From Bilabrum cf. latius (lineage: Eukaryota): a DNA stretch of 64,000 nucleotides. The translations under genes were made by a program, and so were the position numbers. The notes under the pieces were generated by a model. The model did not search any database. It had not been told where the DNA came from and saw only the letters and a program-made list of their open reading frames with translations. Numbering within the stretch: the first letter of the stretch is position 1; every line of letters starts with the position of its first letter. The stretch is from positions 62,001 through 126,000 of the forward strand of contig OZ237743.1 of NCBI GenBank assembly GCA_965178125.1, written 5' to 3'. Positions 2,735 through 53,645 of the stretch are shown here, in pieces.

Positions 2735-2772
<38 letters not shown>

Positions 2773-5700
2773 TGCGGTGCATACAGACAGTGGTGCCGCC
2801 CAGGCATGCTCCCCATGGCGAGGCATGGTGCTGGTGTCGTGGACCATGCTCTCCATATGGGCCGAGGGAGTTGTCAGAGACCTGGCCTCAAAAGGGGTGG
2901 GGGTCATGCCGAGCCGGAGTGGGATCAGGGGCGGGAGCAAAGGCGGGGCTGCAGCCCAGGAAGGGAGCAGGGCAGGCGCTGTGACGGGGGCGTCCTCTCT
3001 CGGGCACTAGCGGTTGGGCACCGGCATGCACGGCACAAGGTACAGGGATGGCCGCCTGCAGCAGTCGCACCGGCTTGTTGGCTCTGCCCTATCCACCGTG
3101 TTCCCCATGATAATCGGGGATGAGGCGCACAGCATGGGTGTCCTCTCCACCTAGCGAGCCAAGGTCTTTGTATCCGCGTGCAACGCCGCCCGGCGGGTCG
3201 TGCTACTCACTGGGACCCCTTGCCTGAGCCGCCCCCTGGACCTGCTCCCCCAGCTCATGGCGCTGCAGCCGGGCCTGACCCCCTCCGAGAGGGAGTTTGA
3301 GCGCAGGTATGCACTCCCCCTGGTGGGGTCCAAGCTCAGGAGACTGGCGAGGGGCAGGCACGCGGGGGCAGCCGCGGCCCAGGCCGCCCTGACTCCGCTT
3401 CTACCGCTGATGCAAGCCTTCCACCCAGGCCTTGCCGCGAGAGAGATGCGCCGCGGAGGAGGGGGGGGCGTTAGCAAAGCGGCAGTCCCCGTCGCCACGC
3501 AGGAGCACGAGGAGGAGCTCCACGCGCTCTTGCGGGACAGGGTCATGGTGAGACGGACCAAGGCAGACGTGCTGGACGAGCTCCCTCCCAAGGAGCGCAA
3601 GGTGGTGCACCTGCAGCTAGAGCAGGACAACAGTGGCCAGCACTCGCAGGATGGTAAGGCAAGTAGCCACAAGACTCGCAAGGGCTCCGCGACGGACGCA
3701 TTGGGGCCCAGGGAACAAGCTGAAAGAGCCAGTCGGCTCGTCTCTGCCGAGTTGGACCGGCTTGAGGCCCAGCGGCGAGAGGAGCCGAGCGGGACCCTGT
3801 CCGCAGCGGAGCTTGTTGCACTCGGTATTCGCTCGCCAGGCTCGCCACAGGCGTTATCGAGCCAAGCCAGTGCGGAAGGGAAAGGCCCTCTTGCTAGACG
3901 ATAGCCTGCAGACCATGGCCGGCGCCCACTGCGGTAGCTAGCGACAGCCCACGTAAAGATGCCGGCCGTGTGCAAATACGTGGCTCGCACTGTCTCTGAG
4001 ATGAGCCTGGACCGGCCCAACCGAGACGCTGCCACGGAGAAGCAATCAGAGTCCAGCCCCAAGTTGATCGTGTTTGCCCACCACCGAGTCATGCTGGACG
4101 CCATCGAAGAGGCTGTTCGAGAGCTGCCAGGGGGCAGCGGGACTGCGCATGGCGACCAGGCCAGCTTGCACGGGTCTGCCTCAGCAGCTGCGACAGCAGG
4201 CGCGACACAGCACAGGGGCATGCACGCGTTCCTCCGCGACGGGCTGCACTCGCATGATCTTGCGTCAGATGGGGACAGCGGCGCCAGGAGTGCCAAGTGC
4301 TGGGCCCACGGCGTGGACTACATGCGCATCGATGGGTCCACACCCGTCGCAGATCGCGCCGAGCTGGTGCGTCTCTTCCAGCGTAACCCGCTCTGCCGTA
4401 TTGCCATCGTCAGCACCACGGCAGGAGCGGTGGGTGTGGACCTGAGCGCAGCAACGGTTGTGCTGTTTGCCGAGCTGGAGTGGTCCGCGGGTCTGCTGCT
4501 GCAGGCAGAAGACAGGGCCTACAGGATGTCCAGAGCTGCTGGGGGCGCAGGAAGCGACGCCGGAGTGTCAGTGCGACACGCTGTCGAGGTCAGGTACCTC
4601 TTGCTGCGAGGCACGGTGGATGACACAATGTGGAGGTCCTTTCGAAAGCAGGCGAGGAGCGTCGTGACCACGGTGGACGGGGCGGCTGCCTCTAGCTCGG
4701 CACTGCAGACGGTACGGGCCGCCGATAAGGGTGCTGGAAACAGTCCCGGTCCAAAGGGCGGATAGCAAGTAAGCCTTTCCCCATAGGACGTCGCAGAAGA
4801 TCAAGGCAGTGTTGCATAGCCGGCGACAGGTACGCAAGCACCTGCACCCTCCCTGGCACCAGCGGCAGTATCGGGCCAAGTGCACAAGCTTGCTCAAGCA
4901 CAGCCCCATAGTGCCGGTGTCCAGCATCATGTAGGCGACCTCACGGACGTGTCGATACCCATGCGTGATCTTGCATTTAAGTGCCACCCAGAGACAGGGA
5001 CCGCGCACGTCTACGTTCGTTCACTGTGCGGCGCTGCAGTGCATCTTGGGTGTGCCTTTGAGCCTGAGCGGGCGTTAGCACCTGAGGGCATTCCCAGTGC
5101 CAGTTTCGGGGCATCAGGTGCCATGACCAGCCCCACTGACGACGGTACAAGTCGGTAGCTAGGAGAGGGCGATGGCAGCGACGAAGGCATGGAAATTGAC
5201 TCGGACTCCGAGTATGACAGCGGTGAAGAGCAGGACCAGCCCCAGGGCAAAGCATCGGGCGATAAAGCCACCCCGAATAGTGCAGCGCTGCCGTGGATTC
5301 ACACCGCCAACCCTGCGACCGCCATCCTGCACAGCTGCGTCAGTGCCAAGTGCATCATCCGGAGGGCCAGACGGGGGTTGGCTTTGAAAAGCGCCGGTGA
5401 GGCTGCTTAGGCATTTGTGGACCAGCCTGCCTGCCAGTGCCGGTGCGTGAGGCGGGTATCCCTCGCTTTCTCGGCCGAGTGGCTGGTGCTGCGGTCTGCA
5501 GTCCGCGCCCGGCTGTGCCACGAGCAGCCCTTGCGCCTCCCTCTTGCCCCGCAGGTCGCTGCGGTCTTGAAGTCATCATCTGCTCCGATGGACGACGGCA
5601 AGGCGTCGGGCGCTCTGCAGCCAGTGCTTGCCGCTGCTTCGTCTGGTAGTGCGGTTTCCTCCGCGCCTTCCACGGAGCGGTACGGCGAGGATCGCGGGGT

Positions 5701-8766: not shown

Positions 8767-9131
8767 CGGGCTGAGCGGTCGGCTTCTTTTGTTGGAACAG
8801 TATTTTGAGACAGGGAAAATGTGCACTGCATGCTGCGCAGACTCAATCCATTATTCTAGTGCCCCACGCTGGCATGCGCCATGATGGTGCCACTGGCAAT
8901 GGGGCAGTGCGGTGCAGCTGCCGAAAGGCCCAAACTTTCAGAAAGACACGGCAGCAAGCATCGACAGCTGTAGCAGGACTAGTGATATTGCATCGTGGAT
9001 TATAAACACTCTCTTTAGATTCCGTGTAGGCCATTAAAGGTGCCTGCTACGCAGATCCAAGCCCTGTGGGCCACTCCGAGCCGTTGGTATAATGTGCGGA
9101 TCAACGTAGTCGAAACGATGTGATCCTAGCC

Positions 9132-12100
9132 ATGGCTAAATCAGATATTGCTACCATGAGTGACGCAGATTCCGATAGGTTGGCTGAACCAACGGAAACT
9201 GAGCTAGATCAGCATGCGCAGTTTTTGTCACAATCGCGTGCGTCCTTCGAGCGCCCCGTACCATGGTCCTTCCCGGGCGGTTCTCTTGCGGCATCCAGAG
9301 GATTGGCTGCACCGGTTTACGTAATTGAAGCTGTGCTTGGCGGGCAGCACGCCGCGCTACGAACGTCACAAGGGGCTGTGTTCACGTTTGGCATGAACGA
9401 CCACGGTCAGTGCGGCGTGGGGTTCAGGGTTAGCGACGCTTCACCCAAGTTCATTCCACATCCACAAATCGTAGCTGGCCTTGGTGGCAGGAGAGTTACT
9501 AGAGTAGCGTGCGGCAAACAGCACAGTTGCGCGATCGATTCAAACGGCATCCTCTTTGCGTGGGGTGACGGTGCTTGCGGCCAGCTGGGCACCGGGGACA
9601 CCCGCTCCCAGTCACGCCCGGTCGCGGTGACAGATCCGAGTGTTCCTGTCGTGTCCGTGTCATGCGGGTCCCGGCATACGCTGGTGGTTCGCGGCCCTCC
9701 CATGGACGGAGTGGTGCAGGCTTGTGGCGACAACAGCTGCGGGCAATGCGGGTGCAGGGCGGAGCGGGTCACCTCCGGGGATCGATCCCGGGCAGTAGGA
9801 TCCTCAAGCGCCGGTGCAAACTCAAACCTTGCAGGCACTAGAGCACTTACCACACCGCCAGAGGGCCCGATGCCGATGGGGCCGGGGATCGATCCCCACA
9901 GCAGCACCACGAGTATCCCGTTGCTGCTCGACCAGGAGGAGAGTCACGTGACCGACTCGTTCGGGCTGCACGCTCTGGGGCACGGGCATGCAGCGCTGGG
10001 CAATGTCCTCGGACCCATGCCCTCCGTACAGTCGGTTCACACGGTGCGAAGCGCCAGCTACAGCCAGAGCGCCAGACAACAAGGAAGGGTCGCACCCAGC
10101 CGAGGGTCGGCCTAGGTGTTGCGAGAGGGCTTCAGCACGTCGGCCGAGACCATGGCCATAGCCGGCATGGAGGCCTCGCATATTAGGAATGCACCCGGGG
10201 CATAGGGAACAAGAGCAAGGGCGGGCCCGCCTCGCCATGTTCTGCGACTCGCCACCGTCGACTTCGAGTCGCAGTCCTCCCCGTTCAACTCCAGGGCAGC
10301 GGCAAGGGTCAGGAGCAGGAGAGTGCCCGTGAGCGGCCCCGCCGCGGACCATTCGCTTGCAGTGGACTTGGACACCGGGGCGGTGTGGGGGTGGGGCCGG
10401 GCCCAGGAGGGTCAGCTGGGGTGTGGCAGCGTCAGCACAGGGGGCAGCGGGGGCGACCGGGGCGGGACTGCAAGGGATGGCGGTGCCGGTGGTGCTGGGG
10501 GGACTGGGCGAGTCGGGCGTGGGTCTCGCCTGGCGTGCGAGTGGTATCCCCGGATGATTCGATCCCTAAAGGCGGAATGGGTAGTGGACGCAGCCGCGGG
10601 GGGGCAGCACTCTGTGTTCCTCACAGATGAGGGCATGGTATGGACCTGCGGCGATGGGGCCAGCGGGCAGCTAGGCATGGGCCGAGGCGTGCAATCGCGT
10701 GATCGGCCCTAGATGATCCCGCCTGCCTCCTTTGGCGAAAGGGTGTTTCCGCACAGGGTATCAGCAGGCAAGAGGCACACAGTGGCATTCGATCGTGTGT
10801 CGGGGCAGCTCTTCACGTGGGGAGAGACCGCCGGAGGCCTCGGGTGGCAGCAGCCTCGTGCCAATGCGGGAGCAGGTGCAGGTGCAGGTGCAGGGGCAGG
10901 GGCAGGGGCAGGGGCAGGGGCAGGGGCAGGGGCAGGGGCAGGGGCAGGGGCAGAAGTGTTGACGTAGAAGGACGTGGCAACTCCCTACTCCTGGCACCCC
11001 CGCCGCGTCACGGCCATCAAGCGAATCTCTCAGTCCTTGTTGCACGAGGTGTTCCCCCTGAAGCACAGGCCGCTGCCCCCGCTGCCCTCCGCTGATCAGG
11101 GCAAGGCAGAGGTGCTCAGGGTGCAGGCACGGGCGGTGCAGTCCGTTCCACCGAGCGTGCGGGCGCTGTTCTCTGATGCCGAGCTTCTGGAGCTGAAGCA
11201 CGGGTTTGACCAGGTGGACACGGACGGATCCAACGCGATCGACGGGCAGGAACTGCACACTGCGCTGAGGTCCTCTGGCAAGCTGGGGCAGGCCATCTCC
11301 CACGATAACGTGACGAGGATCATCACCGCATACTCGAGGCGCGGGGAGACGATGCTGCGAAGGGAACAACAGGAAGGCGATGGCTCAGTGCCAGGCGCGT
11401 CAAGGGCACTGCATGAGGCTAGGGCGATGCTCCCCGGTGAGGTGCAGGACGCAGAGGGCGGGTGGTAGGACTCTCGAGAATAGGAGGGTGACGAAGACGA
11501 GGATGATGAGGATGCGGAGCTGTCGTTCTCTGACTATGTTTGCCTTGTGCGGGATATCAAAGAGGGCAAGGTGGACATACCGGGGGCAGCTGCGCTGGGG
11601 GCCGTTCTGCCCGGCGGTAATGAAATCACAAAGGCATGCGAGGCCCGGCTGGAGAGGAGGACCAGCGCGCTGAATGAGGCGAATGACCGGCTGGAGGCTA
11701 GGCGCGTGTTCCTTGAGTAGGACGAGTAGGGGGTGGGCCTGCTGACCCCAGAGCAGCTGGGCGTATCTATGGAGAGGATGGGGTTAGTAAACCCGGGCAA
11801 GGTCGCCCTCGAGCGACTGGCCCTTGAGCTGGCCAGGGTGACCCAAGGCGGTAAAGGAGGGGGGGCTCAAAGGGGCAAAGGTAGGCCCCCGCCCATCGTA
11901 GCGGCAGCCAATCGCGAACGGCACCGCGGTGACACCCCCGAGTGGGGGAGGGGCAGCTCGGCTGTGGCTGGCCGCAGGATGAGCAACCTGCGAGGGGACA
12001 TGGATGAGGCCAAGCAGCCGTCCGATGCGGACACTCCGCTGGTGCCCATGCGGGCGTGGCTAGAGTACTTCACTGCTGCGAGGAAACAGGCAAAGGAGAC

Positions 12101-19544: not shown

Positions 19545-19581
<37 letters not shown>

Positions 19582-20269: not shown

Positions 20270-20730
20270 AGTGCCAGGGTGCGTAGCAATGCAAGGCTAT
20301 AGTACCATCCATATCATCAGTTGCACTTAGGCGCCAGTGGTTCCGCACAACGAATGCGCGGCGTCAGATGCAGTGCACGACCGAGCCACACAGCAGGGCT
20401 GCGGTTGCGAGCAGCAATCGGATCTCGTGGATAGTGGCATCTGCTGATAAAAGAGTGAGGATCAAAGCAGCGATTGTTACTAATTATATTTGCTGCCAAA
20501 TTATCGTGATACAATTTGCCCGTCCGACCTACATCTCGCTTCAAAACACGTTGCTAGTTTCTGTTTTGTGTCACGCGATCCGCAGTGAGCGGGCGATAGG
20601 TGCCGGATCGCAGTCCAATCATGCGTTTCAGCGCGCTCGCGCGATTAGCAGCAAAATGTGAGCTCCTTGACCCGGCCATGCGTTGCGCAGTCGCTGCTGC
20701 AACATATTTAGTTTCACTTGCTGATGTCGC

Positions 20731-26449: not shown

Positions 26450-27676
26450 ATGCCGAAGCACAAGTTCTATGCAGTTTAGGCGGGCCGTAGAAAAGGAATT
26501 TTTTTGAGCTGGGACCAGTGCCAGAAGCAAGTGTCTGGATTTCCAAATGCTTCCTTCAAGAAGTTTTCTAATCGATCTGACGCCGAAAAGTTTGCGTTTG
26601 GGCTGGCCGCGACGTCTGGCACTGGCAGGGCTCCCGAGGACGCCATTCGGCCGAGCCGACAACCTCGGGGACCTCGGGCTCCTAGTGCGCCCCGGGCGCC
26701 CCGAGATGGCCGCCGGCGGGCAAGCAGCACGAGTAGAAGTGCAGCGGCAAAGAAGCGTGCTGTATCAGAGGCTATATCATTTCCCGAAGGCGAGGCCGAC
26801 ACGTTTGTCATGCAGTTCGACGGCGCTTCTCGAGGGAACCCAGGGCTCGCCGGGGGCGGGGCACACCTGATGGATTCGGACCGCAACGAACTAGGGCGGG
26901 CCATTGCGCGCTGGCCGCACGGACTTGACCGCGTGATGCACGACGGTCACTTCGACGGCGCCAAGGAGGTCCCTGGGGCTGGGATGGGCGCCGAGACTGC
27001 CCTCTGGTTGCAGGCACGCAGGAGGGGCAAGGGGCTGGGCACCAGCAACCAGGGAGAGTATCTGGGTCTCCTCGCGGGTCTGTGTCTTGCCAGGGACCTC
27101 CTCGCGGTTCCGCTGCTGGCGGGGCGCCGCGGGCTAACGACGGCCCAGGCACGCGCTGCTTTCGTGCGGGGCGTGGGGGATGCGGAGGGGGGCGAGGGGG
27201 ATGGAGTTGGGGAAGGGGTAGGGAGGAGCGGGGCAGCAAAAGGTGGTGCCGAAGGCGCCAGTGCTGCAGCAGCTTCGTCTTCGCACCCATCCCCGTAGGT
27301 TGCTTGCTCGTCCAGCCGTGCCGTGCCTCGCGGTCTGTCCCACACGCGGGCCCGACTGGTGCTGCTGGGCGACTCGCAGCTGATAGTGAGGCAGCTGAGA
27401 GGCTCATACAGCGTCAAGTCGGACTCAATTCTCGTGCTGCACAAGCGTGCACTGCAGCTGCTGGACCGGCTTTGGTCCGCAGGAGTGCACTGCGACCCCA
27501 GCAGCGACATTGGGCATGTACCTCGGGCGCACAACGCCGTGGCAGACGCTCTGGCCAATGAGGCTGTGGACCTGCCCGAGGGTGAGCACTTCAAAGAGGC
27601 GCTAGTGAGGGACAGGGGGCAAGCAAAAGGCAAGAGTGGGGCATCTGGCGCTAGTGAGGAGGACAGCCTGAACTGA
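26450..27676 (+). CDS. Ribonuclease H1: N-terminal hybrid-binding (Cauli_VI) domain plus archaeal/plant-type RNase HI domain
   Basis: Hybrid-binding domain [38 protein letters not shown] (TAG at 26477). Catalytic motifs FDGASRGNPG, TSNQGEYLGL, GDSQLIVRQ and HVPRAHNAVADALAN. A TAG at 27296 separates catalytic motifs; TGA at 27674. Confidence 0.9.
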
Positions 27677-30653: not shown

Positions 30654-33600
30654 TCATGCTGATTGGCCGCGGTCCTACAGTAATGAGGCAACTGCTGCCT
30701 CCACAGGCGAGGGGCCGGCCCCGAGCTTCTCTAGAGGGCTTGTCGCGCCTGCAGACCCCACTCCCGCCAGCAGCAGCTCATCTTCCAGAGCCAGGTGTCC
30801 CGATGCGTTCTCCTTTCTTTGCTTTTTCTTCCCCTTGCTCGCGGCAGTCCCTGCCTCGCCCAAATCCCCCCAGCGCTGCCTCAGCTCCCCCGCGAATACC
30901 TCGTGTCTACGCGGCGACACGCAGGGCAGCACCACGTCCACCAGCAGAGCGCGCCACTGCTCCAATGTTTCGATCTTTGCGTCGCTACCACTGCCCCCAT
31001 TGGCTGCTTCGGACGTTCCCAGCACTCCGCCCTGCCCCTGCTTCGTCCCCTCACACACCCCCATCAGCCATTCTACTAGTGCACTGGCCCGCGAGGCGTC
31101 CCCCGCCCACACGCACAGCTGGGCATACGCTCGGGTCCACACCACCTCCTCCACACTGGGGGCATACTCATCACACCATGATCCGGCTCCGAATCCCCCC
31201 GCTCTCCGCACCGCCCTCGCGGCCCACAGCCGATCCTCGGCCTCCCCGAGACCGTCCACCAGCGCGCGAGCCGCCTGCAGCCGAGCGGCCTGATCCTGGT
31301 CCTGATCTGCTGCAGTCGAGGGGCGGACCCGGGCCCGGGGGCTCGCTTTTCCTTGTTCTCCGGGTTGTTCCCTGCCCCCCATAGAGGCAGAAGCAAGGAT
31401 CCTCGCGGCTGCATCGGCTGCTGCGTCGCACCTCGAAGCGATCTCGCCGATCTGGGCGCCTAGCCCATCAGTCTCTGACCCTGTCGACCCGCGGCCTCCC
31501 TCACGCGCGAGCCCTGCCGCCGCCACGGCCTCGGCTGACTGCACCAGCGCTGCCCTGAGGTCCCCGCCCAGTCCCCGCGCCCGCAGGACCAATGCACTGC
31601 CCCCCATCCCGCCCTCACCCTCGCCCTCGCCCTCGCCCTCGCCCACCCGCGCCGCCAAGCCCTCAAGTGCAGGCAGTGCACGGCGGGGCAGTACGGAGGG
31701 GAGGAGCCTCCATGCCCTGGCTCTCGTGTCAAAGACCATGTCCAGCACGGAGGGAGGAGCGGCGGCCGCCAGGGCCGGCGCATCTGCCCCGGGTGGGGCC
31801 CCGAGCCCTGCCTCGATCTGGACCAGGGGCCAGCCGCCGCGGCTGAGCCTGATCCCGCGGACGCGATGCACCATGGGCCACTGGGCTGTGGGGCCGACCC
31901 GGGTACCTGCTGCCCCCGTCCCCGCCCCTCCTGCAGCTGGAACTGACGAAGCAGTCGCGATGCCCGCCTCGGCTGCGGCCGCCGATGCCCGAGCCAGGGC
32001 AGGCGCGACCGAGCACACACAGTCCGCCACCAGCTCGCCACTACCCCCGCCCCGGCCTCCCCTGTCCTCGAGAGACCACGCGATCAGCTGTCCATCTGCC
32101 CCCAGGGCACACACCCGCACTGAGGCAGACACGGCGCCCGCTCCTTTCCTATTCCCAGCAGACCCGTCTCCCTGTCGCACGTCCAGGTACATGGCCACGA
32201 CGGGCGCCCCCAAAGACACAGGCCCAGCCACCCGCTGGCCCGCCCCGCCCAGCAGAGCCACCTCCCCGGATTCAAAGCCGACTCCCACCAGCATGTCCGT
32301 CCTGCCCTCGTCCTGCTGGGCGCCTGTCCGCCTCCTCGCTGCGGCCACGGAGCACGCCCGTCCCGGCAGACGGGCCATCCACACGACCTCCTCGGCTCCA
32401 CCGGCCCGGCCAGAGGAAGCAGAGAATGAGGAGGAGGAGGAGGAAGGAGGAGGGGGCATCTGCGACCCTCCCGACTAGCCCACAGCCAGGGTGCCGCCAT
32501 TGCCACTTGTCCTACCGCTACTTGATGCGCCAATCACGGCGGCCGAGCCACCACCAGAGCCCTCAGTTCGCCTGCTCAGAGCCACAGTGGAAGTGAAGGC
32601 AGCAGCACCTGCCGCGACCAGTGCATTCGTGACGCCAACCCCCGCGCCAGCTCCTTGCACTACCGTGGGCTGCACCTGCACGCGGGCGGTCTCCGACAAA
32701 GAGGCTTGCACGCCGAGCACCACAGATCCGCCGGGCCCTGCGCTGACAGACCAACCCGCCCCGCTCCTCTGCCAACCACCGCCACCAACAGAGGATCCAG
32801 CGCCAGATGGCCCGTCACCTGCGCCCTCTGGGTGTGCCAGCAGCCAGGGGCGGCCGCTCGCGCGCGCAGATCTCAACGCAGGCATCGACCGCGCGGGCCA
32901 CCTGGTTGCAACCGCGTCGTGTGGAGCCACCCCCGGCAGGGCAAGGGCCATGCCAATGCCTGCCCCTCCCGCGGCCCCTCCTAGTGCGGACTGCAGCGCA
33001 GACAAGAGCCCCTGCATCCCCGGCCCGCCAGCACCAGCACCAGTCCCCCCTCCTGCTCCACCCCCCCTCGCCACCTGCCTCAGCGCCCTCGTCAGCGCCA
33101 GCACCCCTTCTCTCTCAGGCGTGCCCATCCCCGCCCCACCGTCGAACCCACCACCCAGCCCCATTCCCTCGTCTTCGTCTTCGTCCGCCCCACCGTCTCC
33201 ATCGAACCTCCTTGTGTCCCCTCTCCGCCTCTTGGCCGCCCGCCCCCTCTCACTCCCCCCCTCCTCGTCTCCATCCTCCAGCAGCTGTACCTCGTCGTCG
33301 TCATCCTCCCCCAGCTGCCCTAGCGCCTCCCCTCGCCCTCTCTTCTGCCCCGCCACTGGATACGCCCCTGCTCCCCCTCCTCCGCCCCTGGACCCATACT
33401 ACCCCCCCTCCCCTTCCCGCTCCACGATCTTCTTCGAGGCGGGGCCCTTCCACTGCAGCGCGTGCCTCTGCCTCCCTGTCCTCCTCGCCCTCCACCTGCA
33501 CCCGGGCACCGGACACAGGGGGGGCGGCTCCACCAGAGCGGCATAGCCGTCACCCCCTTCGCTGGCCTCTGCTTGTTCCCTGACAGCGCCTTCCTCTTCC

Positions 33601-33957
33601 AGCAGCCGATCCACGAGAGAGGCCACGTCATCAGAGGTATCGGCTCCTGCGGCACCGCCGCTGCTGTCGATGCTCCCGCCGTCCGCGTGCTCGAGCCATG
33701 CAGTGTCCCATGGAGCGGCGCGTGCAAATGCAGAGCCCCAGCCAGCAGCCGAGTCCACCGCGTGTGGCGCACCCCGATGCCCACCCACGTGCCCCTCTGG
33801 CAGCACCGGCGTTCCAAGCCGGGAGGCCGGTCCCACGGGCAGCATCAGCAGCGCCACGTGACCGCTGGCACTGCTGGCGAACAGCGGCAGAAACACCTCC
33901 AGGGGCTGATTGGTGCTCGGATCAGAGCTTCCGTTGGAGCCCATGTCACCCCCTTCA

Positions 33958-33991
<34 letters not shown>

Positions 33992-36267
33992 TGCCTGCCT
34001 GCATGAGACCACGGCGGCCCCGGGACTGACCGCTGCCCCTCTGCTGCCCCTTCCCCGCCATCGCCCTGCGCGCCGCCACGAAGGGGTTGGCCCCCAGCGG
34101 GACAGTCATGACCTCGCCGTCCTCCCGGCGCACCACCAAGCACCGCCCCGCGGATAGGTCAGTGACGGGCTGGCGGAACACCCCGGTGAAGCGAGCCACG
34201 GGGCGCGCCCTGTCACTGGCCCACACGAACACGCCGCCCTGCGCATCCCCGGTGGCCACGATCGTCCGCCTCCTGCGCTTGGGACCAGGTGGTGGCGGGC
34301 GGACCGCGGGCCAGGCAGACCCCTGCGGCAGAAAGTCCGCGGGCAGGGCAGCCGAGCAGACCACGGGGGCCTTGTGCCCCACCAGGTCGGCCACAGGGCG
34401 GGCCGACAGTCGGCTGGACCTGCCCCCTGCAAGCAGCCTCCTCCACAGGTCCCCGGTGCCCCCCTGCTGCTTGCCAAGCAGCACGTCCGCTGGCTTGAGC
34501 CCCGAGAGCGCGTCGGACTCCAGCCCCTTCAGCCACTCCGGGGGGGCGTCCAGCGATGGCCCACCCCCGTGCTCCACCCCCTCCCCAGCGGCCCTCCGGC
34601 TCGCAGACACGACGGGGGCTGCCCTCCACGGGGCCCTAGGCACCACAAGGTCATCGCAGCCCCCCGGCAAGCGGGCGTGCAGCGCGTCTGGCATGGGCGG
34701 ATCCTGGGCGGGCAGGTGCGCCAGGGGGGTGCGAAGGGCGGGCCTGGCCACCACCGAGGCCACGGGGACCGGGTCATGTTCCGCACCCGGTAGCACGAGC
34801 GCGGCGCCGTAGGGGTCCCACGCCAGCCTCCGGAAGAGCCCCTGCTGGTCAAAGAGCCTGCCCAGTGAGCCGTCGTCGTTCTGAGTGCGGAAGGGGGCGG
34901 TGATGGAGCACTGCCTGGACCACGCAGTCCCCGGAGCGGCTGCTGCGTCAGCCTCTTCCTCTTCGTCCTCGCCAGTCTTCTGCTCCTCTCCCGGTGAGGG
35001 CGCCGCCAGCTGGGACTGCTGCGTCTGCAGCAGCAGCTGCATCCCGGTGGGGGCGCCGGCACCCGCTTGCGATAGACCAGAGCCCCCCTTGGACCCGATG
35101 CCACCCGTGCCCCCCCCCTCTTTGCCCACCCCCGCTGTGGCCCGCACCGCGCTTTCCTCCTTCTGCACCCAGCGCCGCACCCCCCACGCCCCGTCGCACC
35201 TCCGGTACAGGTCCGCCCGCCCCGCCCCGTACAATACGGCCAGGTACTCCCCTCTCGGGCCGAAGCTGGCGCTCAGGGCAAATCCACCGTCTCTCGACTC
35301 GATCACAGCCGCCGGTGACGTCACCGCGATGACTGGATCCTGCGCCGCCACCACGTGAAGCCCCGCGGCTAGCTTGTCCGCGTTTGAGGCCTGCTTGGCG
35401 GTGGGCTCCCCCGCCCTCCTGGCAGCGGTGTCCATGGCTGCCTGCGAGAGCGCCCCTCCCCTGGGAAGCACAGCAAGGGGGGCTCCAGCTGCTGCTGAGG
35501 AGGAGGAGGAGGAGATGGTCGATGGCTGGGGCAAGGCTGCTGCTACCTGGGAGCCAGGCAGAGATGGGGGTACGGTGGCACTGCCGTCCGTTGTTCCCTG
35601 GCCCCCTCGATCCCCCGTACTGTGTGGCACAGAAAGACCGAGGGCCGCGATGCTATCCATGCTGTCCTCCCCTCCCGCGAGCCCTCCTCCTCCTGCCGTC
35701 CCGAAGGCACCCATGGAGTCCTGGCTCAGCCCACCCAGCTGCATTGCCTTGCGGTGCCTAGTGGACCGCAGCAGCGCCTCGGCCACGTCCCAGACCAGCA
35801 CCCTCCCATCCGTCCCCGATGTGACGAGCAGCCGCCCGCAGGGAGACCATCCAACGCTCGTGGCCTTGCACACCCCCCTGCCCCTGTGCTGCAGCGAGGC
35901 AGCGCAGTGCCACCACCCTTGTTCCCTGCCCTCGGCAGGCCTCCCAGGCAGCGCCCCCATCACCTCGGCCAGGTCATGCGAGGCCTCTTGTTCCCTGAGC
36001 ACGGCTGCCTCCGCTGCCACCGCGGCCCTCTCCCGCTCCCCTTGTTCCCTGGGCAGCGGTTCGAACCGCGCCTCTGCAGGAGCGGGCAGCGAAGGCGGCT
36101 GGGCAGGGTCCTGTCCAACATGGGGCGGAGCTGAGGCAGACCTAGTCATCGTCTCCTGGGCAGGTGCCCCTTGGGCCTGAGCAGGGGGTGCCTGCAGCTG
36201 CTACTGCTGCTGCCCCTCCACTGCAGCAGCGGGTAAATCCGTGGCGGCCGACTGCTGCGACTATCCA

Positions 36268-36298
<31 letters not shown>

Positions 36299-37094
36299 TG
36301 GCCGCCTGTCTCTGCTTGGTTCTCTCAGCGGCTGCCTCTGCCTGCAGCTGCCTGAGCCTGTCTCGGTGCAGGGCGGCTTCGTGCGGGCGGGGCCGCTTGG
36401 CGGGGGGCTCCACGGCGGAGTCTGTGCCCAGCTGTGCTCGCCAGTAGGCCACAGCTAGAGGCCGGAGAGTCCCGTCGCCAGAGTCCTCGTCATGCTCGCC
36501 CTACTGCTGCTGCGGGCCCGATCCCGCCCGCTCCTCTCTGCACTTGGCAGCAGATGCCGGGCGGAAGGACCAGATCCTCACCGTGCCGTCTTCGCACGCA
36601 GTGGCAAGGTGGCCACCGCCGGGGGACCATCGTACCATGATGACAGCGCTGTCGTGCCCTCGGAGCGTCGCAAGGCGCCTGCCGCGCTCGCCCGCCAGAC
36701 CACGCGATCTAGGGCGATCCATCCAACCGCCAACGGAGCCTCCGACGTTAAGGCCGAGAGACTTGGCCTCATATTTTATAGAATACAGCGGAAGAGTGGA
36801 CCATACGCTCACGTCTGTTCCGAGGCCGCAGGTGGCGATGCGCCTGCCGCCTGGCTGCACATCCACAGCGTGTACAGACATCCCTGCGAAGCACAGCTAG
36901 CCAAGCATACATAAATACGTCAACGCTAAATGCCTATACATTAGCACCGAAGCGGGTCTTTGATGTCCTATTCTCTCACGTCTTAGCACAATGTCACGGT
37001 GAGCCAGCCACGAAGCCACCGACACTTCGCAGTCAGCGGCAGCATTCTGCGAAGAATCGGGAGATCGCCGGTGGAGCGACGGTGGCGACTACAT
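30654..37094 (-). CDS. HIRA: HIRA histone H3.3 chaperone (WD40 repeats plus C-terminal Hira domain)
   Basis: HIRA-like motifs in order: SVHAVDVQPGGRRIATCG, HDSAVIMVRWSPGGGHLAT, WSRQCSITAPF, FRRLAWDPYG, DLVGHKAPV, VWASDRARPV...VFRQPVTDLS, then C-terminal GFESGEV...GQRVAGPVSLG and LSRGGWPLV. One frame with about 8 TAGs, ending at TGA 30654. A short 5' intron is possible and the start is uncertain. Confidence 0.85.
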
Positions 37095-37271: not shown

Positions 37272-38465
37272 ATGGCAGCAGTAGCAGCAGGAGCAATGCC
37301 CTCGAGCAATTTGACAGTAGATACTCTGGATGGGAGCGCACAGCCGGCTTCCATCCACCGGAGGTCTGGTATTACCAGCTTCGACAAGTGGGTAACTGTT
37401 TTCCTACCTGACTTTCCCATCACTCGCGGTTGCTACTACTACGAGGTAGAGCTCCTTGGCCCGCTAATGTATCCATAGATTGGCTTCGGGACGATGGCCA
37501 CCAACGCAAGAGGCACGTCGGGACTGGGTGATGACAAGAACGGGTGGGCTGCTGATCCCAGTCGCTGCACTCTCTGGCATCGCGGGCAGCAGGGCGCTTT
37601 CGGTGCTCAGCGTTCGAGCGGCGTGCTTGGATGCATGATCGACACAGATGCAAGAACCATCCGCTTCGGCTTCAACGGCAACTACAGCAGGCCGTGGGGC
37701 CTGGCTTTTTCGGGTGCAGACATCGGCCGGGAGCCCGTGTTCGCGATGATGAGCTGTCAGAACGGGAGGTGTCGATTCCGTGTGGGAAGCACTTACCAGC
37801 CGTTCGTGCACGGTCCGCCGGCGGGATCTGGGGCGCTGCCGCTGTGCCAGGCGGGGGCAGGCGGGTATGCAGTGCCAGAGGCTTTGCCGCTGCGGCCCGC
37901 CCCGGACTCGGGCGCTCCGCCGTCCAGCGGCGCGTCGGGGGCTGGCAGCGGATCTGCCAGCGGAGAGGTGGGTCGATTGCGTGGTGAGGTGGCCCGTCTG
38001 ACCTCCGAGCTGGATGGGCTCAAGGCCCGCATGACGCTGATGGAGAGGCTGCTGGCGGGGCAGGGGCCGGGGCAGGGGCTGGGGTATGGGCGCGGGTAGA
38101 GGGGGGGGAGGGAGAGGGGCAGGGAAGATCGGCCGGAGGAAGATGAGGGAATGCCACGAACTTCGCACCCTCGGCGGCCTGCAGAAAGTCTCTTCCCCCC
38201 TTCTGGTCCCATGCCAGCGGAGCCTGATCCCAGGATGGACCCGCGCTTCGACCCAAGGGCACCCCCACACCCAAGCCTCCCCCCACACACAATGGTCCCC
38301 CCATACTCTAGAATAATCGCGGCGCCTGCATCTGTACCGGGCAGAGAAGGAGAAGGAGAGGGAGCAGCAACCGACGGCGATGGTCCCGTGGAGGAGGCAG
38401 AGCCAGCCCCGCCCGGTGCTTCAGTCAACCCGTACGCGCATGTGTAGAGCGTACGGATGGTTTGA
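37272..38465 (+). CDS. SPRY-domain protein (RNF123/RSPRY1-type SPRY) with a short coiled coil
   Basis: GCYYYEVELLGPLMYP*IGFGT...GLGDDKNGWAAD...VLGCMIDTDARTIRFGFNG. TAGs at 37476, 38097 and 38445; TGA at 38463. Confidence 0.8.
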
Positions 38466-38545: not shown

Positions 38546-41500
38546 TCACGGGCCCCCCCTGGCCCCCAGATCCCCGCCTCGCAGATCACCGTCCTCCTCG
38601 TCCTCTCCAGAGGACAGACCATCCACCACGAATTCACCAGATCGGGGGCCCATCGGCAAGGCAGCCACACCTCCATTGCGGACTGCCGTCGGAGAACCGA
38701 AGACTTCATCCACCTGGTTGCCCCCCTCTCGACCCCCCCTCTCTCCCAGCTCCAGCTCCAGCTCGGGAGACTCGCCCCCCCCTCCCCTCGAGCCATCGCT
38801 CTCCAGCCCAAACTCGCTGTCGTCATCATCACCATCACCACCATCATGGTTGTTGCCTCGCTCACCCCCACGCCGCCCCCCTCCGATCACCCTCCTGCCA
38901 CTCCCGCGAGACCCCTTCACGCGCTCGTACCCCGGCTTGCCCCCGCCGCCGCCACCGCACATGCCCCTGCACGGGCACCCTCGCCCCAAGCACCCGCAGC
39001 AGAGGAACAGCAGCACGCCCAGCACCCTCCCCACGCCCCACCCTGCCGCACCCGGGCTTCCCGCAGCACCCTCCACCTCAGCCTTCTCCTCACGAGCAGC
39101 AACCCCACTCGTCACACCGCTCGCACCCCGAGCAGCTCGCCACGCTTCCACCGGGTCGCATCCAGCCCTCGCCAGCGCGGCAGCGTTCCTCCAGCAGCCC
39201 ACGGCGCAGCCCAGCACGGCAGCGAGCGACACCACGAAGGCACCCACACCCCCGAGCCACCCCTGCGGCAGCACCCGAGTCGCAGGCGCCCCCACGGCCC
39301 CTCCCTCCCCTTGTTCCCTGTCACTGGCGTCCTTCCCCCCGCACGCCCCCTCGTCCCCTGGAAATCTGGGCACCTCCTTGCAGGGCCCCACTGACGGGGA
39401 CGCGCTGGGACTTGGGGCTGCGGTTGGCCCGGGGGCAGCGGAGGGTATGGCAGACGACGGGCTGCCGGCCTCATTCTCGATGCTCGATACGGCCTGCAAC
39501 AGATCCAGCCGCCCTTCAGCACCAGCGCCCTCTTCGTCAGCAGGCACCAGCTCCACCTCCACCTCGAGCAGCACGGGCACGGGCCTCGACCGCCACTCCA
39601 GCCTCCCCCGCACCACCCTCCCGTTGGCCTCCTGCAGCCACTGCCGGTCCGTCCTCGCCCGCGCCGAGTGCGACTGGGGTGCCGTGCCGGCGGGCATCGG
39701 GTTGCTTTGCCGCGCCCATTCAGCGTCCACCTGCCGCGCAGAAGCCACGAGGAGGTAGGCGGCTGCAGCTCTCCGCCGGAGAGTCCTCACCGATGCATCG
39801 CCCTGCCGCCCCTGCCCCTCCGACTCCCGCCAGGTCTCGTCCACCCACACCAGGTCGTCCAGCGGGAGCGGCACCCGCGCCGAGGCTCGCTCCTTGTAGT
39901 GTGACGAGTGCATGTTGGCGCCGTTGCTGCGGAAGTCCCCCGAGCCCCAACGGGTGCTCAGGGCCCCGCTGCCGGCCTCCCCCCGCACCTTGGCCCAGCT
40001 CGCGGGAGAGCCCCGGCGCCACCCCGCCAGCAGGGGGCGTGCTTCATTGTTCCCTGGGCACCCGCACTGCTGCGTGCCCTCCTGTTGCTCCTCATTGGGC
40101 AGCAGACAGAGGCACCTCGTGCTCATCCCCGCCCTCGCGGGGGGGGAAGCAGCAGCGCCCCGTCCATCGGCCAGAACTAGGGGCACGAGAGCAGCTTCAC
40201 CCACCCGCTGCATCCATTCGGTAGGTCGCGGCTGTCTGTGCGCGCGAGTGCCTGCCTGCAGGGCCGCTGCGACAGAGGCTGGGACCGAAAAAGGTGCATT
40301 GTGGCCAGTCACCGTCGCGGCTGCGGCGTCGGACGACAGAGCAGCGGCCTCGATGGATCCGTTGAGCACGCCGAGCGCGCCTTCCAGCCAGGGGGCGCCA
40401 CCTCCATCGCCCCCTGCTGCCGCGAGGGGGGACAGCAGGCCAAGATCAGCGCCCAGGGGCCACCGCAGCAGCAGCAGCTCCGTCTCTTCCACCCTCAGCC
40501 CGCCCCCTAGGTCCCACGAGAGCCCCACAGAGGGCAGACCGCCGACCAGACTACCGCTCATGGATCCGCTGGGCCCGAAGGCAGAAAGCACCCGGGCCAG
40601 CGAGGCATTCCCAGCCGCTCCCTCGTCCCAACGACCAGCATAGACTCCGGCTCCTTGTCCGGATGCTGGTGATGCGTGTCGCGCCCCGCCAGACCCTGCA
40701 TCGAGCCTCAGCTGCATGGAGCTCGCCTGCTCTGGATCTAGGCCCAATCGTCTCAGCTGGCTCCTTGGCTTGTCTCCCAGCGCGGCCTCTAGCACTGCCG
40801 CCGGCACTTTTGCGCTGACGGTCCCACCCACCACATGGGCCCTCCCTCGCAGCTGCTGGAGCAACGCTGCACTGATCCCACCTGCCCCCAGCCCCTCGTT
40901 GCTTCCAGATCCGCCGTTTGCCTCGTTTGCAGCCTTTCTTAGCTCGCCTCCAGCAGCACTTTGCCCCCTTCGGCCGCTCGTCGCGCCACCAGTACCGCCG
41001 CTCGTGCCATTGGCTCGTGCAGTCTATGGCAGGACGACCGCGGCCGTGGCACCAGCCGCCCCGAGGGAGCCGCTGTCTGTGCGAGTGACGAGCGGCTGCA
41101 CGTACGGCTCGACCAGGTCGAGCATGGCTAGCGCAAGCCTCACGTTTCTCGTCACGTGGGCGTCTCCTTTGCCCTCCGTGCGCAGCATCTCCTGCCAGGA
41201 ACCCAGCATGCCCACTGGAGGCGTTTTTCTGTCGGATGTCTCGACCAGCACGTTCAGTGTGCGGAAGGAGACAGGGTTCGGGTTCTCTGTGCGCGCCCGG
41301 GCGTAGCCCCCGTAGGTGGTGGGCTCGCAGTACCCCACGAGTGGGGTGTCCCAGGAGGAGGCGTACGCCCAGTCCTCCATGCCTCCTCTCACGCCGTACA
41401 CGACGTCGTTCATCCGACCCACGGGGTACTTTTTGCTTGGATACCTCCCCGCGAAATCTCGCATGACTCCTCCCAGCTGTGCCTGCGCCCTGTCGTCTGG

Positions 41501-42700
41501 CGACTCGGAGTTCCTGTTCTTCCCTTGCCTTGAGGGCGCGCCCCATTCGTATGCGATGGCCTGCATGCCCCCGTGGTACGTGACCGCCATCTGGAACACG
41601 TGCTCCCGCCACAGCTCGTTCAACACCCGGGCCACCACCGTGCGCATGCAGTCATGCGTGCCCGGGGCCATGTCAATGGGGAAATCCCGGTTCGGGTCTA
41701 TGTGCAGCTCCTCTCGCTTGCCCTGCTCATACCCGATCGGGTTGGTCACCGCCAGGAGCACCACCTCGCGCGTGTCCAGGAGCCTGCGGAGCCAGGCGTT
41801 CCCCTTGACTCCGAATCCGCGCAGGGAGTGCTCCTCCGAGATAAAAGGGACGGTCTTCCCGCCATTGGCCGCTTGCATCCCCCTGCTCCCCGTGCCCACA
41901 GTTCCCTGCAGCCGCCGACCACCGAGGGGGGTCAACGGGGACAGGAGCCCGTCCAGGTCTACGGCCACAGGGGGCGAGTCGCCCAGCAGCTGCTCGCGAA
42001 GCAGCTCCGTCAGGTTCATTCCTTCTGCTCCTGCTCCGCCGAGCGCCGCGCCGTCTGCCTGCCCTGTGCCAGTGGCGCTCCCTCCCACCCCGCCTTCCTC
42101 CGGCGCGCAGTAGGCGCCTAGCAATAACTCCGCCAGCTTGATCACAGTCATCGGCCCAACCTTCTCATCACCGTGGAGATTACCAGAAAAGAATACTTGC
42201 GGTCGTTCAGGGTCCTGAGAGAGCGTCGCACGATTTGTGAGCCGGATCACCCAGTGCTCGCAGGCATCAGGTGATTTGGTCCCGTCGGCCTGGTACGTCT
42301 TGCACTTGCCTGCAGATGGCAGCCCGTAACGCTTCTGCGCTGAAAACAGCTCTGCAAGTCCCGGATATGCGTCGGCAAGCGCATGCAACCGTTTCACAAT
42401 GTCAGCGTACGAGTGATATGAAATTTGCCGTTTCGTGACCAGCCGCTTGCCCGTCGTTGTTCCTAGCTACCTCTGGTTTCCATCATCAACAGATAGCGAT
42501 CGGCGCAAGACACCGGGCTCCTTTGCTGGTACCGCAATCCCGCACGGCAGTGGAACGTCTTCAGATGCAAGAGAAACACGCCTCTGCGAGCTGACGCCTG
42601 GTGGGCTCAATGTGCCGGTACCGACAGCTCCTTGGCCCAACACGAGAGCGGCGACGACAATAATAGCTAAAGATTCGAGTAGTTGGCCTGGCATGAACAT
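38546..42700 (-). CDS. M14 zinc metallocarboxypeptidase (carboxypeptidase D/N/E-like) with signal peptide and C-terminal TM segment
   Basis: Hydrophobic leader, then YHSYADIVKRL, GNLHGDE (HxxE), DPNRDFP, TYHGG, GGMEDWAY and VETS. TM segment WLGGVGAFVVSLAAVLGCAVGCW. TAGs at 42467 and 41024; TGA at 38546. Confidence 0.87.
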
Positions 42701-42825
42701 TGGGGTGGCGTTATGGACACGTTCGTACACGATCCTGTGGCTTTCGCGTATTTTTCCTCGCTCCGAGGCTGCAAACGAACCTTCGTGAACGACACCAAGC
42801 ATTCTGCAACGCCAAACAAATGCAC

Positions 42826-45495
42826 TTACAACAACCCCCCTTGCAGCAGAGCGGATCTCTGCACGCCCCCTGCAGCCGCCCCCCAGGTGCCTCCCATGCC
42901 CTCGAGCCCCTCCCCGGCAGCAGCAGCAGGAGGAGGCCCCGCGCCGCCACCCGTGCTCACACCGACGGCACCTCCCTCCATACCGATCCCATCGCCCCCG
43001 TCTCCCCTGCTCCTGCCCAGCCCCGCATCCGGCCTGCCCGTCGTGGCCAGGCTCAGCTGCCGCAGCAGCGCAGCGAACCTTCCATCGAACTTCACCAGCC
43101 AGTCCCTATCGAAGAGCTGCCTGCCCCCGATCCGATCCACCTCCTCAGCGGCCAGGGGCAGCCCAACAGTCCCCGCGCCCTGACCAGGCCCCGCACTGGT
43201 CCTCCACCGATTCCCACCGCCGTGCGATGCACCCCCTCGGGCACCCAGCCAGCTGCGCTTGCCCCCACCCGCGCCCCGGCTCCGGCCCAGGATGCTGCCG
43301 CCGTCCAGCTGCGTCACCGATCCCGTGCCCGTGCTCGAACCTCCCATGGACCCGACAGACCCTGCCCGCAGCCTGCCCCTACCCCCACCACCGAATATTC
43401 CCCCTTGGAGGCCTGATCCATCCTCAGGGCCCATGCCTCCGGCGCCGACTGGCACTGGCGCCTAGTCCTCGGTTCCGTGTTCCTCGGCCCCTTGGCTCTT
43501 CTTCTTCTTCTTCTTCTTCCCTGTCTTCTTCTTCTTCCGCTTCTTCTTTGGCTTTGGTTTCATCGACTCGCTGGCTGCAGCTCCATCGCCGGTGTCGTCC
43601 CCCCGGTCCTCGCGCTCGTCGCCTGCACCACCGTCCTCCTTGCCCTCACCTGCCCCTGTGCCCGCCCCCTCAACCCCTATGCCCCCGGCCCCGCCCTTCT
43701 GCTTCTCCAAGCCCATCACGATGTCCGCTGCATCCCCCGCCCTCCTGCCGGTGCCCTCCCCTTCATCACCCAGCCCACCCCTATCACCACCTCCCCTGTC
43801 CCCGCGGTGAATGCGCCCATCCCCCCCCCTTCTACCCCCACCGCGGAGGGGGGACAAAGCCGGGCCAGCTCCGGATCCGCGAGCCTTCGAGAACGCGCCT
43901 CGCCCCTTCCCCAGCCGAATCGGACTGCCCATCGACGAGGAGGAAGAAGAAGAAGAGGATGCCACCGGACCAGACCGGGCCCCTGCCCCAGCCCCTGCCC
44001 CTGCCCCCTCCATGGGGCCACTCGCCATGCCCGCGGGCCTTCGCCTCGAGGCACCTCGAGACCGCAACCGACGGCTATCCCCCGCCGCAATCGATCGCAC
44101 GGGCGGCTGGGCCGCACCATAGGCAGCCCTTGCCGCTGCAAAGCCGCTCCCCACCCCGAGTCTGACACCACTTGCCTGCCCAGCGCCGCCCTGCTGCTGC
44201 TGCTGCTGCCTCCGCTGCTGCTTCTTCCTTCTCTCTGCTGCGCGCTTCCTCCTGCGCCGCAGTGCATCCGCCTCCTCGCCCGCGCCCGCACCCACAGCAA
44301 TCCCGCCTGCAGACACTTCACCGCCCTTGGATTCTGGTCTGCCCCCACCGGGGTGACCCCCCCCTGCCATGCCCCCACGACCCCCCCCTGGTTGCCCCGC
44401 GCGGCCAGGGGCACCCGCCCCCGCCACCGCCAGCACGGCGTCCTCCACCTGTTCCCTGGGCATTCTGGCGAGGCTGGACGCTAGCACACCCAGCAGCCGC
44501 AGCACGCCCGTGGAGCGCCGCCCCCGCAGCACGTCCCAAGGCCGGATGGCGGCGGGCTGCCCCGTCAGTCGAGCCACCAGCGCGAGCACCCTCGCGACCA
44601 TCTGCTTGCGAGCCTGCTCGCTGCTCAGCAGCACAGAGGGCGCGGCCGAGTCCCCAGGGAACAGTGCGGCGAGGGGCCCACCACCTCCTCCTCCTCCTCC
44701 CCCCTGCTGGTGCCCTGCTTGCCTCGATTCGCCGGGGCCGTTTTGCTCGCCCCGTGCCGCGTCACCCGTGTCCCCGAGAAGCGCCAGAATCACCCGCATC
44801 ACCACCACGAAAGGCACTGTTGCACCCAGAAGCTCCTCTTCGTCGACTGGCGAGTCCCCGACCACGGCCCGCAGCCAGTGCAGCAGCTCGCGCGCGGCAT
44901 CGTGGCGGAGCGGAGCGTCTTCGTCCAAGGCTGAAGACTCCAGAGATGCAGCGGCCACGGTCTATGCAGCCGACGAACGAGCCTGTGGGGTTATAGGAGA
45001 AACAGACCTCAAGCCTGCCGCAGGCTGGCCCGCAGCGGAGCGGCTCGAGGCGGTGGATGGCGGGCTGCTTCCCGGTTGGCCTCCTTGCGCGAGCCCCACG
45101 CTCCCACCGAGACCACTCTACGGCTCAGCTTCCATTGGTCTCATACCAAGGCTACCTATGCCAGGGTTGGGAGCAGCGGCGTTATCTGCGAGCCTTGTCC
45201 GGCCGCCAGCCCCGGTTGGCCGGTTGTCGTCGCTGTCACCATCACCGTTCGAACTCATGGAATACTGGTCTGAATCGCCCTCGTCTTCAGCTTCCCCTGC
45301 TTTCGACTCAAACATGGATGGACCCGAATCCAGAGGGCTTGGCTTGCTGTCAAGCTGTTTGCGCAGCCCAAGCGGCGTCGTCGGCCCTACCGAGTCTTGT
45401 GGGGCTGCAGCAGAAACACTCCCAGATTCTTCTTCGTCAAACTCATCTGCGTAGTCTCCTAAGCTGTCGTCGTCACCTAATGCAGAGCTTGCCAT
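42826..45495 (-). CDS. Low-complexity protein with a possible CH-like (IFT54/TRAF3IP1 N-terminal-like) domain
   Basis: One frame with 3 TAGs, ending at TAA 42826. The segment RKQMVARVLALVARLTGQPAAIRPWDVLRGRRSTGVLRLLGVLA weakly resembles the MIP-T3 CH domain. Contains a Lys-rich tract. Confidence 0.55.
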
Positions 45496-45940
45496 TGCAA
45501 GGCCTGCAGAAAGTGTTGCATTCAAGGTCCGCAAACGGAAACACGCATCATGATGTTGCTACAGTGCAATGATTCGTCCAGAAGGTCGAATTCTTCGAAA
45601 ATACGTCTGATTGACCGCGCTACAGCAAAATTTCTTAATCAAGTCAAAGCTCCCAGCAGTTCAAGCCGCAAAGACCAGCTCCTGCACCCAGTGCATACTC
45701 AGCGAGCAGGTGCATGCCAAGTTAGCGCACCAGTTGTCATGTGTCCCTGGCAACACACGCCAGGTCCTGGCCACTTGCAATACAGTGCCTAGATGGAAAT
45801 AAATATCACGCTGAACTCCCAATACGCTGAGTTGCAACGGGAAATCAGAGCTAGGAGGCATTGAAATTCGTTTCCAGACCATGCACTCCTCCAGTTATCA
45901 CACTTCACCCCGGCTTTCCTGTTGGTCAAATCATAATAGT

Positions 45941-53466: not shown

Positions 53467-53645
53467 ACTAATAACGCAAAGTTGCGTCTCAATTTGCTGC
53501 ATGTTAGCCTCACAGGGCCGTGCAATGTCTGTTCCAAGACAGGCCTCCATCTGCTTCGTAGCACTCGTCACACAGAACTACCCAACTTTCGCTCCACGGG
53601 CGGTTGCAGTCGCCACGCACAGTCTCGCCGAGTGGTGCGGACGAC

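Follow-up and report, generated by a model that had tools for sequence, protein, structure and literature searches.

How a TAG triplet can stand in frame inside an intact SPRY domain, and what it encodes there, is the question raised by a gene in a 64,000-nucleotide (nt) stretch of DNA from Bilabrum cf. latius (Eukaryota; assembly GCA_965178125.1, contig OZ237743.1, positions 62,001 to 126,000 of the forward strand). This whole stretch is hereafter called the window, and all positions are counted from its first letter. The features on which the question turns are the following.

37272..38465, plus strand: SPRY-domain gene, from the ATG at 37272 to the TGA at 38463-38465, 397 codons with TAG as sense, containing three in-frame TAGs.
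37434..37784, plus strand: SPRY domain, residues 55-171, recognized by PF00622 and Foldseek matches.
37476..37478, plus strand: in-frame TAG forming codon 69 of the SPRY gene and lying in the conserved glutamine (Gln) column of the sub-family (P-Q-I-G-W/F).
38097..38099, plus strand: second TAG of the gene, the stop under the standard code, with the frame open for 121 codons beyond it.
38445..38447, plus strand: third TAG of the gene, followed 6 codons later by the terminal TGA.

The preliminary description of the locus had placed a TAG at the conserved Gln of the SPRY motif. The string that it quoted around 37476 is exact, and it is confirmed from the sequence and its translation that this TAG lies in frame within the SPRY open reading frame (ORF), inside an intact domain. 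We regard it as nearly certain that the codon is translated, and as highly probable that it is translated as Gln, namely as the residue that would begin a core β-strand of a SPRY domain of the Q-x-G-W/F sub-type. For the window as a whole, it is likely that we are dealing with a GC-rich, apparently intron-free eukaryotic nuclear stretch, in which TAG is a sense codon, most probably for Gln, and translation ends mainly at TGA and also at TAA.

On the plus strand and in the frame of 37476, the translation reads GCYYYEVELLGPLMYP before the TAG and IGFGTMATNARG after it or, with a longer stretch upstream, ITRGCYYYEVELLGPLMYP before the same IGFGTMATNARG. The ORF expected from a standard-code annotation would start at the ATG at 37491, downstream of the TAG. 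The SPRY protein matches PF00622 at 45.6 bits (E value 9e-12, cut-off 26.3) over profile positions 2-118 of 121. Taken from the ATG at 37491 only, it scores 35.6 bits, whereas the whole region with X in place of the TAG reaches 44.7 bits, so that about 9 bits come from the 14 domain residues preceding the TAG; because the downstream part alone scores that much less, the upstream stretch belongs to the SPRY domain. The structure predicted by AlphaFold2 from a 45-row alignment (mean predicted local distance difference test score (pLDDT) 88.2, predicted template modelling score 0.84) comprises 13 strands, four of them upstream of the TAG, and residue 69 begins the strand 69-73, in a block with a pLDDT of 97. 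In a Foldseek search, this model matched the solved SPRY domains of Ash2L, DDX1, RyR1/2, SPSB2, RanBPM, and HERC1 with E values of about 1e-10, the template modelling scores being 0.55-0.82 (Ash2L, DDX1, RyR, SPSB2, and HERC1). In comparison with these solved domains, fold and Pfam match agree, whereas sequence identity is just 16-25%. The codon-usage score of the domain part is +0.108 in frame 0 of the plus strand, above all five other frames. The Pfam, BLASTP, AlphaFold2, and codon-usage results together indicate that the frame is no chance ORF but codes for a genuine SPRY domain. Since a product ending at the TAG would have 68 residues and lack the domain, codon 69 must, according to the model, be translated for the SPRY fold to exist.

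The residue favored at codon 69 was sought among homologues. With residues 1-215 as a query carrying X at the TAG, a search of 1.84 billion representative proteins gave 751 matches at E ≤ 1e-3, and the column counts rest on the best 150 of these 751 together with P0001, re-aligned by local phmmer; because the query carried X, the counts of Gln are not circular. There were 195 aligned stretches, 22 of them gapped at the TAG column, and Gln stood in 129 of the 173 others. When each protein is represented by its best column-covering stretch, a count that leaves out 11 proteins without a stretch over the TAG column, Gln is found in 121 of 140. The claim that Gln is favored over Leu, Glu, Tyr, and Trp is borne out by the same count (0, 0, 0, and 2 proteins, respectively); Lys is likewise absent and Arg occurs twice, and in at least one of the two proteins with Trp, P0003, there is a register shift. 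In 9 of the 19 non-Gln proteins, a Q-x-G-(W/F/L/V/M) motif is present but out of place because of a shift in the alignment. The conservation of Gln is about that of the next Gly (128/140) and above that of the Trp/Phe (93 and 36). In a separate MAFFT alignment of 44 homologues picked by length (about 350 amino acids or less) among the 150, with the query row entered as Q, column 69 is Gln in all 44, and the invariant columns are four, E58, Q69, G71, and G86. The column of the closest homologues is thus dominated by Gln, as the preliminary description had supposed. The best match, P0002 (E value 1e-35; BLASTP identity of 50% over query residues 33-162, straddling residue 69), reads YYEVEMLSRLDSPQIGFGT in this region and has SPQIGFGT where the window has P-TAG-IGFGT. 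A profile built from the homologues gives 260.0 bits with Q at the TAG, 257.1 with C, 256.8 with R and H, 256.4 with K and W, 256.2 with E, 255.1 with Y, and 254.9 with L, so that Q has a lead of 3.2 bits over R, 3.6 over K, 3.8 over E, and 5.1 over L.

The emission of the Pfam SPRY profile at this column had been suggested as a further check, which turned out not to discriminate: with the generic PF00622, Q is not the top residue (W 46.8, R 46.1, C 45.9, Q 45.6, L 43.8, and P 43.4 bits). In the RyR2 SPRY2 domain, the nearest solved sequence, V-G-W stands two positions off the I-G-F of the query in the HMMER alignment, and when the G-W/G-F pair is put in register by eye, the residue at the TAG column is Arg, not Gln. 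Because PF00622 barely separates the residues and RyR2 SPRY2 has Arg, the conservation of Gln appears from these comparisons to be a trait of a SPRY sub-family, the column being variable across SPRY domains overall. The flanking motif of this Q-x-G-W/F sub-family is present in the window (YYEVE...P-TAG-IGF), the Gln itself being the codon in question. The M-Q-I-G-W motif, which the preliminary description assigned to the RSPRY1/RNF123 type, is present in some homologues (P0079, P0082, and P0143). The window protein does not have the combination of SPRY and RING domains of an RSPRY1 or RNF123 orthologue, no RING domain being found in its 430-residue ORF, for which Pfam gives SPRY only (E ≤ 0.01). 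In 24 homologues scanned for partner domains, U-box, NEL, ADP-ribosyltransferase (ART), ankyrin, TIR/SAM, SET, thioredoxin, SDE2, and MIB/HERC2 domains were found. A word-indexed homologue search with the whole SPRY protein, in which low-complexity words dominated, gave one match.

Some homologues have ends worth recording. P0002 (186 amino acids, starting with V) ends exactly one residue before the position of Gln163 of the SPRY protein, encoded by CAG at 37758-37760 (plus strand); this end would be in keeping with an ORF fragment truncated by an in-frame stop that occupies a Gln position in a relative. P0026, P0057, P0097, and P0131 start at the Gln column or immediately beyond it (VGW..., MQFGW..., MAQLGW..., and MAQIGW..., respectively) and look like truncated gene calls, and it may be speculated that P0026, which starts right behind that column, comes from an organism in which this Gln is encoded by a stop codon. 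Neither the gene of P0002 nor the window sequence had an exact match or a relative in prokaryotic genome contigs.

The codon at 37476 is one of many of its kind. The window has a GC content of 54-72% along its length (about 65% overall), and reading TAG as sense yields 13 ORFs, between 397 and 2,471 codons long, which together account for about 56 kb of the 64 kb (about 88%), the longest ORF being 985 amino acids under the standard code as against more than 2,000 with TAG read through. These ORFs contain 99 in-frame TAGs in 18,574 codons (5.3 per 1,000), and every one of the 13 carries some. Of the 12 complete ORFs, 10 terminate in TGA and 2 in TAA. Freeing TAA as well extends the ends of six ORFs by 41-123 codons without joining any ORFs, and from the CAA:CAG ratio of 0.29 about 27 in-frame TAAs would be expected if TAA encoded Gln; TAA is therefore not a sense codon. 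Over the 64 kb tested, the code has TAG as sense and TAA and TGA as stops. In the gene at 1637-7420, the SNF2-related (residues 245-309), Helicase_C (890-964), and HNH (1665-1707) domains lie in one frame with TAGs between them. By their Pfam matches, the genes of the window are of eukaryotic type, including a ZRANB3-like helicase, an RCC1-repeat protein, a WD40 protein (HIRA/CAF1B-like), and an M14 carboxypeptidase; an RNase H1 with an N-terminal hybrid-binding domain, a protein of the endonuclease/exonuclease/phosphatase family, and a metallophosphoesterase are also encoded. None of the window genes requires introns.

Beyond the SPRY gene, just three TAGs fall within domain alignments.

3152..3154, plus strand: TAG in the SNF2 domain of the ZRANB3-like gene (1637-7420), residue 506, after motif II.
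10710..10712, plus strand: TAG in an RCC1 repeat of the gene at 9093-15497.
26477..26479, plus strand: TAG in the N-terminal (hybrid-binding) domain of RNase H1, gene at 26450-27676.

At the SNF2 site, an alignment of 58 rows obtained from the first 60 of the 120 listed matches shows K14, Q13, T10, R5, S4, L4, V3, A2, P1, D1, and E1, and the Pfam scores are 23.5 bits for K, 22.9 for Q, and 21.7 for L; of the 18 TAGs of the ZRANB3-like protein, this one (residue 506) is the only one in a well-aligned block against the 30 best matches. The RCC1 column, drawn from nine repeat alignments of three solved chains, contains R2, K2, T2, M1, H1, and Q1, and Q scores best with Pfam (37.7; R and T 37.4, L 34.9, W 31.8). 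At the RNase H1 site, Pfam gives 78.3 bits with W, 77.9 with R, 77.5 with A, 77.4 with K, and 77.0 with Q. Summed over these three sites, Q and K reach 137.6 bits each, R 137.5, E 134.1, L 132.1, W 130.5, and Y 129.8. Adding the sub-family SPRY profile leaves R 3.3, K 3.6, E 7.3, L 10.6, W 10.7, and Y 12.7 bits behind Q. As far as the alignments tell, the three TAGs occupy variable polar columns that are compatible with Gln and speak against Leu, Tyr, Trp, and Glu, and these four are well excluded as the meaning of TAG. Arg and Lys are disfavored by the profiles by about 10:1 only, and more strongly by the SPRY column counts (Q in 121, R in 2, and K in 0 of 140). The meaning Gln is supported mainly by one SPRY sub-family column, together with its compatibility at the three other sites.

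Several results weigh against Gln. A single TAG, that of SPRY, stands at a strongly conserved column, and even the profile made from the homologues puts Q ahead of the next residue by just 2.9 bits. With the generic PF00622, the twenty readings span 43.4-46.8 bits, a spread of 3.4 bits in which Q is fourth, and summed over the four sites with generic Pfam profiles, R comes marginally above Q (R 183.6, Q 183.2, K 182.3, E 178.6, W 177.3, L 175.9, and Y 175.2). The RNase H1 column contains R in three solved structures, A in the two nearest homologues, and no Q; the homologue search for this protein gave 11 matches, two of them with the N-terminal domain. Nor is a preference for Gln visible in the neighborhood of the TAGs: Gln within three residues on either side of TAG is observed 32 times against 24.2 expected (1.32-fold, p = 0.07), Q ranks 11th of 20 for TAG in a naive-Bayes neighbor test, and TAG lies beside CAG or CAA in 9 of 99 cases as against 7.7% overall (rank 10 of 58 codons, not significant). 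Neither tRNA genes nor Rfam families were found in the window, hence no tRNA with the anticodon CUA, and a Pfam scan found no eRF1 among the window ORFs.

These points bear first on the explanation that TAG is a sense codon for another amino acid, with Arg and Lys least excluded and Leu and Glu having precedents, which we consider improbable. The near tie of R, Q, and K in the generic four-site sum, the R of the RNase H1 structures, and the K14 against Q13 of the 58 SNF2 rows would all be in keeping with it, and UAG does encode Leu in some nuclear codes (PMC5304391, PMC11687900). At the SPRY column, however, R occurs in 2 and K, L, E, and Y in none of the 140 proteins, the sub-family profile places Q above R, K, E, and L by 3.2-5.1 bits, and the three other sites cost Leu, Tyr, and Trp another 5.5-7.8 bits. 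An assignment of UAG to Arg or Lys was not met in the parts of the literature on such codes consulted here, no search having been aimed at that assignment. A somewhat less improbable explanation, though still an unlikely one, is an ambiguous code in which TAG is Gln internally and terminates, at least partly, near gene 3' ends, with a nearby TGA as a back-up. It arises from the observation that a TAG lies 6-8 codons before the terminal TGA in 4 of the 12 complete ORFs (18254, 30675, 38445, and 46471), each followed by a purine, which has a binomial probability of 0.0011 given the in-frame TAG rate, calculated post hoc; context-dependent stops are known in other protists, as described in the parts of PMC4967479 and PMC12005148 drawn on here. 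The count is, however, small and was noticed after the fact, and ancestral TAG stops that are now read through to the next stop would give the same pattern. The base that follows the 99 in-frame TAGs is distributed differently from the one following CAG (p = 0.007), whereas against all codons the difference is not significant (p = 0.08), and no clear context rule for read-through emerges from it. In addition, the segment 38100-38462 after the TAG at 38097 scores as coding, the same frame being the best there, if weakly (+0.063).

It is far less probable still that the TAG at 37476 marks a SPRY pseudogene, a private nonsense mutation, or an error of sequencing or assembly. For such a TAG to arise, one C-to-T change in CAG would suffice, and nothing else favors this explanation, whereas the 99 in-frame TAGs are spread over 13 of 13 ORFs, the SPRY domain is intact on both sides of the TAG, and the coding signal goes on past it. 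The least probable explanation, to which we give hardly any weight, is that the TAG is spliced out with a 33-nt in-frame intron running from the GT at 37446 to the AG at 37478. GT...AG boundaries are present there and the length is a multiple of three; such an intron would, however, remove VELLGPLMYP-TAG, which aligns residue for residue with homologues including P0002 (VEMLSRLDSPQ), and the predicted structure has strands 54-61 and 69-73 in this region, in blocks with a pLDDT of 95-97. Moreover, no other gene of the window requires introns.

The translation of TAG as Gln can be set beside codes that are already known. Codes with both UAR codons (UAA and UAG) as Gln (NCBI table 6) occur in many ciliates, hexamitin diplomonads, some ulvophytes, oxymonads, and an aphelid; there, as proposed here, a stop is converted to Gln through a tRNA-Gln with a stop-reading anticodon, but TAA is not a sense codon in the window. 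By analogy to known codes, it is envisaged that UAG would be decoded by a tRNA-Gln with the anticodon CUA and that the eRF1 of this organism would lack recognition of UAG. UAG as sense with UAA as a stop needs a tRNA whose anticodon is CUA, which reads UAG and not UAA since no pairing takes place between C and the A of UAA (Panek et al. 2017, PMC5304391), and reassignment is thought to depend on changes in eRF1 that weaken the recognition of UAG (PMC5304391). In Iotanema spirale, a tRNA-Gln(CUA) is predicted, together with a substitution in the GTS motif of eRF1 (PMC5304391). The motifs by which eRF1 recognizes stops include GTS, NIKS, and YxCxxxF. UAG alone is assigned to Gln in this organism (PMC5304391) and in the ciliates Hartmannula sinica and Trochilia petrani (PMC11687900), and to Leu in the rhizarian exLh (PMC5304391) and in uncultivated phyllopharyngeans (PMC11687900), as far as the portions of these two papers used here describe. 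The Leu codes resemble that of the window in that only UAG is reassigned and UAA is kept as a stop, but none of the 140 proteins has Leu at the SPRY column, and over the four sites Leu trails Gln by 10.6 bits. The closer likeness is to Iotanema, H. sinica, and T. petrani (the assignment of NCBI table 15), in which likewise only UAG is reassigned, the amino acid inferred is Gln, and UAA is not sense, the tRNA-Gln with the anticodon CUA being the predicted decoder both here and in codes of this type. In contrast to these three, for which UAA is described as the main stop (PMC5304391, PMC11687900), most ORFs here stop at TGA (10 of 12), and the window has about 65% GC and long ORFs without need of introns; the 5.3 TAGs per 1,000 codons also differ from the scarce UAG of I. 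spirale (PMC5304391). Iotanema was accordingly set aside as a match for the window, given its dominant UAA stop and scarce UAG (PMC5304391), and so was Amoebophrya ex Karlodinium, which has all three stops as sense codons and contains introns according to the available part of PMC12005148.

A code with UAG alone reassigned to Gln is thus of a known kind, of which the present instance may represent a new lineage. Judged by titles and the beginnings of abstracts, no GC-rich, intron-poor eukaryote with this code was met in the literature, GC content and introns not having been search terms. We would entertain as a possibility, doubtful as it is, that the window comes from an undescribed eukaryotic lineage, GC-rich and intron-poor, in which UAG alone was independently reassigned to Gln with UGA as the main stop, and that the 3'-end TAGs are either fossils of ancestral stops or sites of termination dependent on 3' context. 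If so, fossil TAGs would provide a dated record of stop-codon capture, and termination at 3'-end UAGs would be a case of an ambiguous code outside ciliates, trypanosomatids, and Amoebophrya. Nuclear codes that split UAG from UAA are rare, those described in the sources cited being Iotanema, the rhizarian exLh, and a few phyllopharyngean ciliates, and a GC-rich case with UGA as the principal stop would be a further, independent example of how the UAR codons can be split between eRF1 and a tRNA(CUA). In practical terms, annotation of this genome with the standard code would shatter nearly every gene, and correct protein sequences depend on reading TAG as Gln.

The divergent neighbor of the SPRY gene also carries TAGs.

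30654..36881, minus strand: WD40 gene (HIRA/CAF1B-like) with 6 in-frame TAGs, two of them in CAG runs.

These two runs read CAG CAG CAG TAG CAG CTG CAG at 36201 and CAG CAG CAG TAG GGC at 36501, and a further one, CAG CAG TTG CAG TAG CAG TCG CAG, is found at 21601 on the plus strand. Such TAGs look, anecdotally, like a C-to-T change tolerated in a poly-Gln tract.

Elsewhere in the window, the ORFs at 46453-53868 (minus), 57901-63999 (plus), 42826-45660 (minus), and 18230-20326 (minus) match no Pfam family at E ≤ 0.01; they have 698 to 2,471 codons with 4-16 in-frame TAGs each and contain many low-complexity Gly/Ala/Ser/Glu tracts. Between 27700 and 30600 lies a gap of about 3 kb with a lower GC content (0.55), in which ORFs of at least 250 codons (TAG as sense) are limited to two of about 260-290 codons; none of its frames shows a coding signal, and it contains neither a tRNA nor an Rfam match. 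At 42826-43144 on the minus strand, two ORFs taken from stop to stop share 319 nt in different frames, namely those of the M14 carboxypeptidase gene (38546-43144) and of the gene upstream of it (42826-45660), which ends in TAA; the carboxypeptidase gene probably has its true start further downstream. Finally, two large tandem repeats lie within genes: a 57/84/141-nt array at 23229-24484 (plus strand) with about 22 copies of the 57-nt unit, encoding PSGKH(H/S)PP(A/P)P, and a 48-nt unit repeated 6.1 times with 100% identity at 18481-18771 (minus strand), encoding PVPAGAPSQVLASVAV. The TAG triplets within both of them are out of frame.

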